From UHGV virus genome UHGV-1370646: 48,356 nt of DNA. The stretch is one strand, 5' to 3'. This stretch comes from a virus. Shown piece by piece: positions 6,200 to 10,064 of the stretch; within the stretch, counting starts at the first letter, position 1, and every line of letters starts with the position of its first letter. A program made the position numbers and the translations under genes. Below the pieces are notes generated by a model. That model had not been told where the DNA came from and made no database searches. It saw only the letters and a program-made list of their open reading frames with translations.

Positions 6200-7171
6200 T
6201 CAGTAACTGATACCGGTATGAGGAATGCGGCCGTCTTTAACCGCGGTGAGCACCTCGATAGCCTGATCCCGAGTAAGGCTGGTATTGGCCAGAAGAGCTT
6301 TGACGATTTCAGTGCCTACAGCCTTGCGGTGCTTAACGTCGGCTTCGCGTCGCGCCTGCTCATCGGCTTTGCGTTTATCCTCAGCCAGGCGGGCCTGTTC
6401 GCGTTGCTCTGCCTCGCGGCGGATGCGATCGGCTTCTTCCTGAGCTTTGCGGCGCTCCGCTTCGATAGCGGCCTGCTTGTCAGCCTCAGCTTTCTGCTCG
6501 GCTGCAATGCGATCTCGCTCTGCCTGCTCAGCTTGTGCTTTCAACACAGCTTCACGATGCGCCGCTTCTTCACGTTCACGCTGTGCGCGCTGCTCAACTT
6601 CGCGGGCTGCTGCAGCTGCTGCCAGTCGCTTAATTTCTTCTTCATGGGCAATGCGCTGGCGCTCAGCCTCAGCCGCTTTATCTGCCTGCTCACGATCGAA
6701 AGCGTCATTCATCAGCAGAGCCATTTCGTGGTCAGACTCAATACGAGCTGCCAGCCGCCGATCGAAGTTTTCATTCATGGCCAGTGCTTCGACGTGAAGG
6801 GCGAGCATGGCTTCTTCGGCCTTAATGCGTTCCTGCTCCGCCTCCCATTCGGTCAACGGGCGACGCACTTCATCTTTCAGTGCATCGAGACGCTCACGGA
6901 CAACGCGGCGGCTTTCATCAATCTGCTTTGGCAGCGCCTTCAGCTCAGCGACCAGGTCTTTACCTGCGTTGTCGATGTAGGTTTTAGAGCGCGCCACCTT
7001 GTGAGCCATGGATGCGATGGCGTCGCGGCCTTTTTTGGTGGTCACGTCCGGCACCAGACTGCGAGCCTCTTTTTCGATCGCTTCGATAAGCGGATCGAGT
7101 TGGTCGTTATTGGTGAAAACCGCCATCGCGTTCCTTTTCTCGATGACGACTAAATCCATTATTTCGCTCAT
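6200..7171 (-). CDS. Coiled-coil protein with Ala/Glu/Arg-rich repeats. A recombination-associated role is possible.
   Basis: 323 aa with a long low-complexity EAERQRIAHEEE.../AEQAERDRIAAEQKAE... segment. The large plus-strand ORFs over it are shadow ORFs of this GC-rich repeat. Confidence 0.6.
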   Translation of the reverse strand: MSEIMDLVVIEKRNAMAVFTNNDQLDPLIEAIEKEARSLVPDVTTKKGRDAIASMAHKVARSKTYIDNAGKDLVAELKALPKQIDESRRVVRERLDALKDEVRRPLTEWEAEQERIKAEEAMLALHVEALAMNENFDRRLAARIESDHEMALLMNDAFDREQADKAAEAERQRIAHEEEIKRLAAAAAAREVEQRAQREREEAAHREAVLKAQAEQAERDRIAAEQKAEADKQAAIEAERRKAQEEADRIRREAEQREQARLAEDKRKADEQARREADVKHRKAVGTEIVKALLANTSLTRDQAIEVLTAVKDGRIPHTGISY

Positions 7172-7692
7172 GGTTTCCCCTCCAAAAGGTTGTTATTAAT
7201 AACTTCGTTATTTGCAAATTTGCCATGGAGTTTCAGCCGATAATCCTTTATTGCCGACTCAGCATCTTTAAGTGACAAATAACTCCCTATTTCTTTGTTT
7301 TTCCCTTTTATGGATATGCTGGCCCGGAATCTTTTCCTTCTGCCATCCCAGCTAACACCCTTTACTCCTGTTTTGTTATTTTTCCCGGCTGCGCTATTCC
7401 ACATATTTTGTTCAGCGGTGGCTTCTCTTAGGTTATTGATTTTATTGTTTTCTCTGTTGCCATCAATGTGGTCTATCATGTTGACTGGGAATGTTCCATG
7501 CGTAACTAGCCACGCGAGGCGATGAGCAAAATAAAACTTCCCGTCAATTTTTATGAGAATGTAACCTTGTCCATTTTTGCTTCCTGCGATACATCCAGAC
7601 TTAGCCTTTCCCCGGCGGTTAACCTTCCAAGTAAATAACCCTGAATCAGGCGAATAATCTAATAACTCATCAAGTCTTTCTTTATTCAGCAT
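7168..7692 (-). CDS. Free-standing HNH homing endonuclease with an AP2 DNA-binding domain
   Basis: 174 aa. HNH motif HIDGNRENNKINNLR and an AP2-like GVKGVSWDGRRKRFRASI. Strong RBS GGGAGG. Markedly AT-rich compared with its neighbours. Confidence 0.85.
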   Translation of the reverse strand: MLNKERLDELLDYSPDSGLFTWKVNRRGKAKSGCIAGSKNGQGYILIKIDGKFYFAHRLAWLVTHGTFPVNMIDHIDGNRENNKINNLREATAEQNMWNSAAGKNNKTGVKGVSWDGRRKRFRASISIKGKNKEIGSYLSLKDAESAIKDYRLKLHGKFANNEVINNNLLEGKP

Positions 7693-7750: not shown

Positions 7751-7957
7751 TTACCGGCTGAGACCTTGTCCCAACCCGTTCAGATAAACTTCAACCAGCA
7801 AGTCGGTTGTGTAAGTCCGCTCAATCCCGCGATGCAGGTACAGGCGGCCGCGTTTATTTGCTGATGCTGTCCAGGTGCTTTCCCGATGCTTAACGAGCAT
7901 CCCTGGGAGAACGGCGCCGCGGTTAACGGTCTGTGTCCCGTAATGATGACTAACCAT
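7751..7957 (-). CDS. Hypothetical small protein (68 aa)
   Basis: Its start overlaps the stop of the upstream micro-ORF (AATGGTTAG). Confidence 0.4.
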   Translation of the reverse strand: MVSHHYGTQTVNRGAVLPGMLVKHRESTWTASANKRGRLYLHRGIERTYTTDLLVEVYLNGLGQGLSR

Positions 7958-8060
7958 TGAACACCCCCGTAACGTGCAGAATTTTGATAATCAACGCTGT
8001 CCAGATAACGCCGCAGATCAGCAGGCAGTAAATCAGTGAACGAATGCCTTGTTTGCTCAT
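7950..8060 (-). CDS. Micro-ORF: 36-aa single-TM peptide MSKQGIRSLIYCLLICGVIWTALIIKILHVTGVFNG
   Basis: Not in the ORF track (below its size cutoff). Hydrophobic helix. ATGA coupling to the ORFs on both sides. Confidence 0.35.
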   Translation of the reverse strand: MSKQGIRSLIYCLLICGVIWTALIIKILHVTGVFNG

Positions 8061-8173
8061 GCTGAACCACCAGGTATCAGGCAGAATGCACTTGCTATCA
8101 GTACGCATACGACGATGGCGAATGCGTGTGCCAGAAACTTAAACCACTCAGTTTTATCTTCTTCGCGGATCAT
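8057..8173 (-). CDS. Micro-ORF: 38-aa single-TM peptide MIREEDKTEWFKFLAHAFAIVVCVLIASAFCLIPGGSA
   Basis: Not in the ORF track. Hydrophobic helix. Its stop overlaps the start of the next micro-ORF (ATGA). Confidence 0.35.
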   Translation of the reverse strand: MIREEDKTEWFKFLAHAFAIVVCVLIASAFCLIPGGSA

Positions 8174-8296
8174 CTCTTCACCTTTGCCTTATCGCGGCTA
8201 ACGGAGCGTTGTTACCTATTACCGGCGCCAACGTTGTTGTTTGGATACCAAAACCAGCTCGTAAACTGGCTTTGGTAACGCCTCTCGGGAGAGGCT

Positions 8297-8506
8297 TTAA
8301 CCGAGACCCTTCTCCTCTTTGCTCATAACTTCGTAGTCACTAATCATCTTCAATACCTCCGTAAGAGGCTGCTCTATGACAAAGCGACTGCCAGAAACCA
8401 AAATAACCAATGTTTTTTTTGTGTCTTTTTCACGCAGAAGGCACGCAACCTTTTCAAGGTCAATTGCTACGCCCTCATCTATGTTTGCTAAAAGTTTCAC
8501 GTTCAC
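8297..8506 (-). CDS. Hypothetical protein, first gene downstream of the PL-like region
   Basis: 69-aa ORF. Not Arg-rich, so not obviously N-like. Confidence 0.4.
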   Translation of the reverse strand: MNVKLLANIDEGVAIDLEKVACLLREKDTKKTLVILVSGSRFVIEQPLTEVLKMISDYEVMSKEEKGLG

Positions 8507-8526: not shown

Positions 8527-8590
8527 ATGGCTTAAATTTAGCGCGATGCTAAATAAATGGCAATAGCAAAATGCTAAATTATCGCTATGT
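8527..8590. promoter_or_regulatory. OL-like operator cluster with TTAGC/GCTAA half-sites
   Basis: 17-bp palindrome TTTAGC-GCGAT-GCTAAA (8527-8543), TAGCA-AAA-TGCTA (8555-8567) and further half-sites at 8574-8590. Lies just downstream of the repressor gene, like lambda OL. Confidence 0.5.
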
Positions 8591-8698: not shown

Positions 8699-9376
8699 TC
8701 ATGGAATATTCAATATCTTAGCATCTACTACAACCCCTACAATCCTACAGTTTCCGTTAATTTCAATCATCGGATACTGTGGGTTTAAGGGCTTCAGGAA
8801 GCGCCTTCCAGCATCAATTACTAACTTTTTGAAAGTGGCTTCATTATCGCCTTCCAACTTGGCCACAACCAATTTCCCATTAATAGGCTCTACTTCAGGA
8901 TCAACCAGGATAGCTGCACCTTCAGGAATGCTAAGGCCGACAGGAGATGTCATAGAATCGCCGTGGACATCTAACCAGAAAGAATCGTCAGAGCATTCGA
9001 CGGTTGTTTCATACCAGCGGTCAATCGCTCTTCGGTGATAAGGCTCTACTGCTTCCATCCACTGTCCGGCACTAACCCAGCTGATCACTGGGTAGCTCCC
9101 CTGAGGGGTATTTACTGATCTGAATGTTACGTTCGTGTGGTTCTCTTTGGCATGTAACGTATCCATCCAGCCGAAAGGCAGATTGAGTGCAGATTCAATT
9201 TTACGAGCCATTTTATCGCCGATGTTTCTATGAGGTTTATCACCTATCAGCTGACTCAGAGCTGCTGGGCTTGTATCGATAAGCTCTGCAAATTGAGCCT
9301 TGTTCAGGCCTGCATCTACACGCTGCTGTTCGATCAAGTTCTCCAGATTCGCTTTTCTAATCTCTTTACTTTCCAT
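8699..9376 (-). CDS. cI: CI-like prophage repressor (HTH plus LexA-like S24 autocleavage domain)
   Basis: Start chosen at MESKEIRKANLE (ATG 9374-9376). C-terminal GDSM serine and KKL lysine fit the S24 peptidase family. Divergent from cro across an operator region. Confidence 0.85.
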   Translation of the reverse strand: MESKEIRKANLENLIEQQRVDAGLNKAQFAELIDTSPAALSQLIGDKPHRNIGDKMARKIESALNLPFGWMDTLHAKENHTNVTFRSVNTPQGSYPVISWVSAGQWMEAVEPYHRRAIDRWYETTVECSDDSFWLDVHGDSMTSPVGLSIPEGAAILVDPEVEPINGKLVVAKLEGDNEATFKKLVIDAGRRFLKPLNPQYPMIEINGNCRIVGVVVDAKILNIP

Positions 9377-9394
9377 CTGCTCATTTTTGTCATT

Positions 9395-9460
9395 TTTAGC
9401 AGAATGATAAATATGCAAATTGCTAAATCTTTCTTGATTAGTATTTAGCATAACGCTAAA
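9395..9460. promoter_or_regulatory. OR-like operators between cI and cro
   Basis: Perfect 17-bp palindrome TTTAGC-ATAAC-GCTAAA (9444-9460) and TTTAGCA...TGCTAAA (9395-9427). Same half-site as the OL cluster. Confidence 0.55.
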
Positions 9461-9491
9461 CTCCATTTTAAATAAGTCACGGGGAGGTCCC

Positions 9492-9725
9492 ATGAGTAAT
9501 GAACTTTTACGCTGGCGAAAAGATGCCAGCACAGGCGAGTGGGCTCAGTTGGCAAAACTGGCAAACACAACCGTTGGTTATCTGGATCAAATCGCCTATG
9601 GAAACCGTCGGGCATCGCCTGAGAAGGCAGAGGCAATAGAAGAGGCAACCAAAGGGTTTAGCCATTACCAACCCGTATCAAAAGAGAGCCTTGTTTTTTC
9701 ACGTCCGAGATGTTCCGCGGCTTAA
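9492..9725 (+). CDS. cro: Cro-like HTH regulator
   Basis: 77 aa. HTH WAQLAKLANTTVGYLDQIAYG. Divergent from cI. RBS GGGGAGG. Confidence 0.7.
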   Translation: MSNELLRWRKDASTGEWAQLAKLANTTVGYLDQIAYGNRRASPEKAEAIEEATKGFSHYQPVSKESLVFSRPRCSAA

Positions 9726-9743
9726 CAACAGGAAATATCACAA

Positions 9744-10064
9744 ATGCAAAGCGCAATAGCCCGCAACTTAGAACCGCCGATCCTCAACCCGATTGAGCTG
9801 GAAGGGGTTTTACTCAACCGCCTTTCATCCATTGGGCAGAAGGCTTACGCGGAGATATTGGGTATCAGTGAATCAACAGTCAGTCGCAGAAAGGGGGAAG
9901 GGCATTTCGCTGACATAGCAAAAGAGTTGTCCGTGCTTGGTCTGCAGGTTGTGCCGCCTGAAGCGGTAGTGGTTTCCCGGCATTACCTGCAGTCGGTAGA
10001 AACGCTGGCAGATATCGGATTACGTGCAGAGCGGTGCCGACCAGGACCGTTGGGATGGGACTAA
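9744..10064 (+). CDS. cII: CII-like transcriptional activator
   Basis: 106 aa. AYAEILGISESTVSRRKGE parallels lambda CII KTAEAVGVDKSQISRWKRD. Correct position after cro. Confidence 0.55.
   Translation: MQSAIARNLEPPILNPIELEGVLLNRLSSIGQKAYAEILGISESTVSRRKGEGHFADIAKELSVLGLQVVPPEAVVVSRHYLQSVETLADIGLRAERCRPGPLGWD

Follow-up and report, generated by a model that had tools for sequence, protein, structure and literature searches.

A predicted 36-residue membrane peptide at the position of cIII, chained to Kil-slot genes in Klebsiella lambda/P22-like phages

The DNA examined is the viral genome UHGV-1370646, analysed as one strand of 48,356 nucleotides (nt; the window), which is that of a Klebsiella lambda/P22-like temperate phage, and the subject is a pair of short open reading frames (ORFs) of its leftward operon, lying directly upstream of kil and encoding peptides of 38 and 36 amino acids (aa), here termed p38 and p36. 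The main result is that p36 is an autonomous and invariant module at the position of cIII, always chained to a gene in the Kil slot. As read from comparison of related loci, p36 is the constant core of a cassette of Klebsiella and Raoultella phages with the order variable upstream gene, p36, Kil-type gene. For the locus as a whole, the explanation that p36 is an early, host-directed effector in the inner membrane is given an even chance. The features on which the argument draws are as follows.

8057-8173, minus strand: p38, 38-aa micro-ORF encoding MIREEDKTEWFKFLAHAFAIVVCVLIASAFCLIPGGSA, from ORF calling and translation; type A of a variable family.
7950-8060, minus strand: p36, 36-aa micro-ORF encoding MSKQGIRSLIYCLLICGVIWTALIIKILHVTGVFNG, from ORF calling and translation; the invariant core of the cassette.
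7751-7957, minus strand: kil, encoding a 68-aa KilR-type FtsZ inhibitor, from family matches and the annotation of relatives.
8174-8186, minus strand: purine-rich stretch CAAAGGTGAAGAG, resembling a Shine-Dalgarno (SD) sequence, directly 5' of the p38 ATG.
8067-8071, minus strand: SD-like GGTGG, 6 nt 5' of the p36 ATG and within the p38 coding sequence.
7962-7968, minus strand: SD-like GGGGGTG, 4 nt 5' of the kil ATG and within the p36 codons T-G-V.
7780-8070, minus strand: 96-aa GTG ORF in the third frame, over p36 and most of kil, judged spurious.

A sequence-only reading of this DNA had described two ORFs of 38 and 36 aa, and both are present on the minus strand with translations exactly as it gave them. 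It had also described the two as chained to each other and to the 68-aa ORF by ATGA overlaps, which holds for the junction of p38 and p36, where stop and start share ATGA at 8057-8060, but not for that of p36 and the 68-aa ORF, where the stop and start share an 8-nt overlap, ATGGTTAG, at 7950-7957. Start signals are arranged similarly across relatives. The motif AAGGTGAAGAG-ATG also stands ahead of the first micro-ORF in most of them, and a ribosome-binding site (RBS) is annotated there in phage Mulock; GGTGG, GGAGG, GGGTG or GGAGT is found 5-8 nt 5' of the p36 ATG in every type of upstream gene, despite the differing C-termini that these genes encode; and GGGGGTGTTCAATGG is present at almost every junction between p36 and its downstream neighbour, whichever of three genes follows, with two variants off by one base. 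The p36 C-terminus, GVFNG, is conserved at least partly because the kil SD and start codon are embedded there. A ribosome ending p38 at its TGA could restart at the overlapping p36 ATG, and one ending p36 at its TAG would have just passed the kil SD and ATG inside the last codons of p36. Coupled co-expression of the micro-ORFs with kil, by a termination-reinitiation route read from this geometry, is thought likely. One result tells against it, namely that no sequestering RNA structure was found over the downstream starts (junction folds compared with shuffles, z = +0.27 and +0.70); since the junctions fold no better than shuffled sequence, translational coupling is argued from geometry alone.

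To assess coding capacity, relatives were searched with a concatenated 74-aa query (p38 plus p36), and 104 loci were gathered; the sources were phage and genome records with annotation, 15 genomes of GTDB located through Kil, and 80 contigs of IMG/VR (out of 239 there that encode a relative). Homologues of p36 were present at 89 loci, in 46 distinct DNA versions encoding 29 distinct peptides with identity down to 40-53%. In all 46 DNAs the p36 frame is open and exactly 36 codons long, while over the same segment the +1 frame and the three opposite-strand frames hold stops in 45-46 of the 46 and the 96-aa frame holds them in 5. Peptides of the p38 family are 35-38 aa in all relatives that carry them. 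The chance of 36 codons remaining open after a given ATG is about 0.18 ((61/64)^36, by our own arithmetic), so an open frame of 36-38 codons is not significant by itself and the case is carried by frame conservation and synonymous excess.

Substitutions were counted for each frame as events along a minimum spanning tree, because the pairwise ratio of non-synonymous to synonymous change (pN/pS) over all sequences was uninformative. In the p36 frame, 90 of 216 changes were synonymous (0.42 against 0.27 expected, p=2.5e-6), and an excess persisted when the count was confined to the first 90 nt, clear of the kil start (0.38 against 0.27, p=9e-4). For p38 type A, represented by 22 distinct DNAs, the fraction was 17/32 (0.53 against 0.25 expected, p=6e-4), and for the 35-aa types of upstream peptide it was 0.38 against 0.24 (p=8e-4). 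The excess was confined to the micro-ORF frames, with none in the other two frames; the positive controls gave synonymous fractions of 0.70 (Kil) and 0.72 (the 64-aa downstream alternative described below). Two of these measures count against strong selection on the peptide: purifying selection on p36 is much weaker than on Kil (0.42 versus 0.70), and pairwise pN/pS is about 0.70 in the p36 frame against 0.61-1.30 in the other frames, one opposite-strand frame being lower (0.61). As judged from these substitution patterns, constraint on the micro-ORFs is real but relaxed. Relaxed constraint is usual for transmembrane (TM) microproteins. We are confident that p38 and p36 are genuine coding genes. 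The sequence-only reading had proposed a conservation and synonymous-constraint check, and had named conservation of the 96-aa frame in place of the micro-ORF frames as the outcome that would speak against it; the micro-ORF frames proved to be conserved with a synonymous excess and the 96-aa frame did not, which is the opposite pattern. The peptides had no match when the supplements of PMC11188072, a catalogue of microproteins from Enterobacteriaceae, were searched by sequence.

The alternative that the micro-ORFs are chance frames, and that the real gene is the 96-aa ORF, an opposite-strand ORF or a non-coding RNA, draws on the ease with which short ORFs arise, on the 96-aa ORF being intact in 32 close relatives, and on record MK714353 (locus L005 of our set, 2022-2159), in which a 45-aa ORF is annotated on the strand opposite to p36 and p36 is omitted. 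That annotation looks like an error, because the opposite-strand frames hold stops in 45-46 of 46 relatives. The 96-aa ORF has no Pfam or PHROG match, and its frame shows no synonymous excess; it reaches at least 90 aa in 32 of 40 distinct KilR-type regions, is broken in the other 8, and is cut to 59 aa or less in 39 of 39 regions in which the downstream gene is the 64-aa (p64-type) one. It is most likely spurious on this comparison, as the sequence-only reading had suspected, and should not be annotated. No Rfam family was found over 7950-8173, the micro-ORF region has no similarity to the E. coli K-12 small RNA (sRNA) kilS, and the region does not fold unusually. The chance-frame explanation is accordingly extremely improbable.

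Longer versions of the micro-ORFs were also considered. p36 is the distal part of a 52-aa ATG ORF (7950-8108, minus strand), and the upstream extension (8061-8108, minus strand) was rejected as coding, with 0 synonymous versus 32 non-synonymous changes in that frame (frame 2 with respect to p38). Where the upstream gene is of another type, the extension takes a different form or is missing (giving 41-aa and 62-aa database calls). A single gene with two TM helices, as the fused 70-76-aa database proteins P0001-P0011 might suggest, was likewise rejected; the junctions of these proteins differ from one another and most are singletons, and they are for that reason read as frameshift alleles or sequencing errors and not as an ancestral form. 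The P0001 allele is represented by 9 sequences from 7 contigs, a 5.58-Mb genome among them. Fusions of p38-type peptides to p36 would give a two-TM hairpin protein, and may be sequencing errors or tolerated natural variants.

The 68-aa ORF matches PHROG 294 ("Kil protein for bacterial septation inhibition") with E=5.2e-34 and NCBIfam NF008465 ("FtsZ inhibitor protein") at 6e-19, the latter falling short of the curated cut-off. It shares 38% identity with KilR of E. coli K-12, and its homologues in relatives are annotated "cell division inhibitor protein". On these matches it is this phage's kil, and the micro-ORFs are therefore the upstream neighbours of kil and not kil itself. Neither p38 nor p36 matched a Kil family in Pfam, PHROGs or NCBIfam (phrog_294, NF008465, PF06301). 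The suggestion that the micro-ORFs themselves sit where lambdoid phages keep kil or host-takeover peptides needs correction as far as kil is concerned, the kil position being taken by the 68-aa ORF. The micro-ORFs do share the operon and expression unit of KilR (Rac) and lambda Kil, the neighbouring 68-aa ORF being a member of the KilR family, although Kil proteins are soluble whereas p38 and p36 are predicted to be transmembrane and fall outside the Kil families.

Across the related loci, p36 is combined with a range of neighbours while the geometry of its junctions is kept. Whenever a gene abuts p36 upstream, the overlap is the 4-nt ATGA, at all such loci; the gene may be p38 type A, a 35-36-aa peptide of type B or C, or an unrelated 72-89-aa phrog_2201-like protein (type D), and sometimes none abuts. 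Types A, B and C have in common only an N-terminal MIRE(E/H)(D/E) motif and a TM helix. Downstream, the overlap is 8 nt, ATGG(T/C)TA(G/A), in all but one locus, and the gene is KilR-type, a 64-aa phrog_3722 protein or, in MK416007, a 97-aa Lambda_Kil protein (PF06301, 1.8e-10), which is preceded by a p36 of 53% identity. One and the same p36 core is found next to each of the upstream types (A, B, C, D) or without any, followed by either KilR or the 64-aa protein. Nearly all combinations are represented, which speaks against both a co-evolving pair of p38 and p36 and a complex specific to p36 and Kil; joint evolution of p38 and p36 as a heterodimer is not supported, because p36 stays the same whichever upstream type is present. 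Because its upstream neighbours are of four kinds and its downstream neighbours of three unrelated ones, all freely combined, p36 most likely acts alone on a host target. That it is an autonomous host-directed effector, and not a dedicated partner of p38 or Kil, is on this comparative evidence about as probable as not.

In about half of the related phages the slot of KilR is filled by the 64-aa phrog_3722 protein (for example at 2104-2298 of locus L006, and in locus L024), with the same 8-nt overlap. This protein was considered as a diverged KilR and rejected (hhalign probability 0.8%); it could be a third effector of the Kil slot.

Each peptide was examined for membrane-spanning potential. 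The hydrophobic core of p38 spans residues 15-33, with a mean Kyte-Doolittle value of 2.59 over 19 residues, and the TM stretch of p36 spans residues 9-27, with a mean of 2.42 over 19 residues; all variants keep a 19-residue stretch with a mean of 1.8-2.9, despite identity falling to 40-53%. The two cores have a mean Eisenberg hydrophobicity of 0.82-0.83, a hydrophobic moment of 0.07-0.13 and no charges, and AlphaFold2 single-chain models give one helix each (p36 residues 3-31 with a predicted local distance difference test score (pLDDT) of 85; p38 residues 5-32 with a pLDDT of 81). The description of one hydrophobic helix per peptide is borne out by these values, and both are very likely, on prediction, to be single-pass membrane peptides, each of which would insert its helix into the host inner membrane. 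The N-terminus of p36, MS(K/R)xG(I/W)RSL, is conserved. Its flanks carry a charge of +2 on the N-terminal side and an uncharged C-terminal tail of 8-9 residues, and these charges suggest an orientation in the inner membrane with the N-terminus in and the C-terminus out.

It could be argued that the micro-ORFs are translational relays that set the dose of kil or bring its mRNA to the membrane, and that the peptides have little or no function of their own. The overlap geometry is constant (4 nt upstream, 8 nt downstream), the kil SD and ATG lie in the last codons of p36 and would account for GVFNG, the amino-acid constraint is weak, and p38-p36 frameshift fusions are tolerated, as in P0001. A relay, however, would not need a fixed length of 36 codons, the conserved N-terminal motif or a retained TM helix, and would not explain the frame-specific synonymous excess in the first 90 nt of p36, away from the kil start; moreover, kil genes of other genera manage without p36, and no sequestering RNA structure is detectable. 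We regard the relay explanation as distinctly unlikely.

The reading of p36 as a host-directed membrane effector was then weighed against the small genes known from this position. The overlap with kil measures 32 nt for lambda cIII, 20 nt for P22 c3 and 8 nt for p36, and in P22 arf and erf follow, in the gene order seen here. Lambda cIII, P22 c3 and the p36 gene are alike in being small early genes of the pL operon, directly upstream of kil and overlapping its start, in a phage that encodes CII. A homologue of CIII was sought by tblastn with lambda CIII and P22 C3, which returned nothing at E<=1, whether from the window or from 102 related loci; Pfam gave no match either. The 360 phage records with CIII are mainly of Escherichia, Salmonella and Stx phages, with Yersinia and Shigella also listed and Klebsiella not among the listed genera, and p36 in phage records is confined to Klebsiella phages. 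CIII is reported to be membrane-associated, and it has been suggested by Kobiler et al. (2007) that CIII-like functions with different primary sequences may exist (PMC1838920). Under the effector reading, p36 would bind a host inner-membrane protein complex, with FtsH/HflKC as the leading candidate and the membrane-embedded division machinery as the next, and it could take over the role of CIII in this phage, which encodes CII and in which no homologue of CIII was found.

Several observations weigh against this. The lambda CIII helix (residues 14-37) is a charged amphipathic one, with a moment of 0.83, a mean hydrophobicity of -0.40 and 10 charged residues, unlike the uncharged TM helices of p36 and p38 (the 18-residue core of p36 has no charge); p36 has no sequence similarity to CIII; the p35-p36-Kil chain of MK416007 lies beside a regulator of the YdaT type (PF06254) and not of the lambda CII type; KilR-type genes of Leclercia, Citrobacter, Kluyvera, Enterobacter and the E. 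coli K-12 Rac prophage lack p36; and the idea that p36 is directed at FtsH comes from its position only. p36 is thus the positional counterpart of cIII, and the CIII analogy is a lead and not a finding, because p36 is physically different and one phage with p36 has a YdaT-type regulator. Direction of p36 at FtsH is put forward tentatively and with considerable doubt, and direction at the divisome, for which SPO1 gp56 provides the analogy, is judged unlikely; some other membrane target comes after these two. The more specific proposal that p36 represents a Klebsiella-specific class of TM micro-effectors in the cIII slot, acting either as FtsH/HflKC modulators that control CII stability and the lysis-lysogeny decision or as TM divisome inhibitors obligatorily co-translated with a Kil-type gene, is also doubtful. 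If it were true, Klebsiella lambdoid phages would control FtsH or division with a 36-residue TM peptide instead of the amphipathic CIII of lambda, which would mean that a textbook step of regulation had been solved twice by unrelated means, and would offer a potential handle on prophage induction and lysogeny in a major pathogen.

A related alternative holds that p36, and perhaps p38, is a TM inhibitor of the late, membrane-embedded division or elongation machinery that reinforces the FtsZ block imposed by Kil. Small single-TM division inhibitors are exemplified by SidA and DidA of Caulobacter. In its favour, a small gene always follows p36 directly and overlaps it, and two of the three kinds of gene found there (KilR-type and Lambda_Kil-type) are known division inhibitors. 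There is also a phage precedent in SPO1 gp56, an early protein of 79 residues with one predicted TM helix that blocks division via DivIC/FtsL (bioRxiv 10.1101/2020.02.06.938217); gp56 resembles p36 in being short, in having one TM helix with a predicted N-in orientation, and in its place in a phage early operon, and differs from it in its length of 79 aa and in its essential extracellular C-terminal domain, p36 having about 8 residues outside the membrane, and the two share no homology. Against this alternative, adjacency in lambdoid phages is a matter of slot order and not of a common function (lambda cIII, though next to kil, does not act on division), no sequence similarity to known inhibitors was found, and the third downstream partner, the 64-aa phrog_3722 protein, has no known function or detectable relation to KilR. 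Reinforcement of Kil by a TM division inhibitor is therefore considered improbable.

Type I toxins such as TisB, Hok, Ibs and Ldr are small and combine a hydrophobic helix with a basic N-terminus. p38 and p36 resemble them in size, helix and basic N-terminus, and on this likeness to the TisB/Hok class they could be taken as peptides that damage the membrane in the manner of type I toxins or holins, with arrest or death of the host. They differ from such toxins in that no antisense RNA or promoter of their own was detected and in being translationally chained within a phage operon. A consensus scan found no promoter-like site on either strand within 7950-8173 (a scan that cannot exclude weak promoters), and no Rfam antitoxin RNA was found in or beside the micro-ORFs, the weak matches, which include istR, lying about 500 nt away at the repressor terminator. 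No toxin match was returned by PADLOC, Pfam or NCBIfam, and early depolarisation of the membrane would harm phage growth. The earlier suggestion that these may be classic type I toxins is not supported, as the micro-ORFs form a coupled polycistronic chain and not a stand-alone locus with an antisense promoter or RNA; a toxin-like or holin-like role is very improbable.

The micro-ORFs had been described as unannotated, which is correct for the ORF track used by the sequence-only reading but not elsewhere. Phage Mulock annotates both (gp043, QFG06745.1, 36 aa; gp044, QFG06746.1, 38 aa, "putative membrane protein"), each with an RBS, and phage GZ7 annotates both (UVD31883.1 and UVD31884.1), one of them as "membrane protein". 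The Prokaryotic Genome Annotation Pipeline (PGAP) calls p36 (RefSeq WP_032429701.1) and skips p38. The exact p36 sequence is present on at least 1000 contigs as "hypothetical protein", and the commonest p38 variant, which differs by one residue (I33M), is present on 57 contigs. The Klebsiella phage small proteins in Mulock, GZ7 and WP_032429701.1 are the same genes, with identities of 94-100% for p36 and 95-97% for p38, and Mulock and GZ7 have the p38-p36-kil order and overlaps seen here; relative to these records, the present phage has an HNH endonuclease gene after kil and a 69-aa ORF before p38, and otherwise differs in nothing substantial. p38 and p36 are a conserved pair of hypothetical membrane microproteins, of a sort common in phage genomes, and are already in databases. 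Annotation of the locus is inconsistent between records, with PGAP calling p36 without p38, one record using the wrong strand, and others extending or fusing the ORFs; frame-specific conservation can serve to validate genes of fewer than 40 codons in the early operons of phages.

Neither p38 nor p36 matched a model in Pfam, PHROG, NCBIfam or PADLOC beyond sub-threshold noise, and PADLOC gave no defence-system match for p36, p38, Kil, the 69-aa ORF or the 64-aa protein. When p36 was searched exhaustively with phmmer in a set of 1.84 billion representatives, 16 matches at E<=0.001 were returned and no distant named relative; the matches form one narrow family of the Klebsiella/Raoultella group, together with two long hydrophobic proteins judged spurious. 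At the DNA level, the phage records with similar sequence are of Klebsiella phages only, and matches are also present in 58 of 5426 complete E. coli genomes.

The regulatory setting of the cassette is given by the following features.

8563-8535, minus strand: pL-like promoter TTGCCA-17-TAAATT, from a promoter scan, overlapped by two operator palindromes.
8536-8554 and 8561-8579, over the pL-like promoter, and three sites at 9394-9461, in the gap between repressor and cro: five copies of an operator-like palindrome, ATTTAGCnnnnnGCTAAAT.
8683-8664: terminator, 3' of the repressor gene.
8699-9532 as listed (277 aa): S24/helix-turn-helix (HTH) repressor, the start being more likely the Met at 9376 (225 aa).
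9744-10064: CII (PF05269).

Three of the palindromes fall inside the 277-aa repressor ORF as listed, and the true start is therefore probably the Met at 9376. Transcription of p38, p36 and kil likely starts at the pL-like promoter, whose control by the repressor would make p38 and p36 early genes. In the leftward direction the order is a 69-aa ORF, a 123-nt spacer, p38, p36, kil, the HNH endonuclease gene and a gene for a 323-aa phrog_1376 protein, and then a 67-aa ORF, arf, erf and further genes including dam, xis and int. The micro-ORFs had been placed early-left, just beyond the repressor; they do belong to a pL-type operon, but the 69-aa ORF (8297-8506) and the structured spacer come first.

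The 69-aa ORF (8297-8506, minus strand, with a GTG start as listed) is the first ORF after the pL-like promoter. Its best family match, to FlbD with E=0.0065, is not credible, and it is not Arg-rich as N proteins are; no N-like gene was recognised in the phage. Mulock lacks this ORF, and the first pL gene there is the p38 homologue. The spacer (8174-8296, minus strand) contains two strong hairpins, at 8295-8280 and 8277-8246, which are not followed by a U-tract, and it folds with a minimum free energy of -51.1 kcal/mol (z=-3.29; 0 of 200 shuffles were equally stable). Both hairpins recur in just 2 of 86 related loci scanned, and they may be a processing, antitermination (nut/put-like) or Rho-related element.

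In the E. coli K-12 Rac prophage (locus L102, 2906-3003), the sRNA kilS lies 176 nt upstream of kilR, at the position of the Klebsiella micro-ORFs; no p36-like ORF precedes kilR there, and the unrelated kilS is found instead. The small element in front of kilR appears to differ from lineage to lineage.

The HNH endonuclease gene (7168-7692, minus strand) lies between kil and the phrog_1376 gene and matches PF13392 (5e-15) and phrog_99 (4e-66), with a weak AP2 domain; its stop overlaps the start of the 323-aa phrog_1376 gene (7168-7171). It looks like a homing-endonuclease insertion, because kil and the phrog_1376 gene adjoin in Mulock, E. coli Ec1117 and GZ7.

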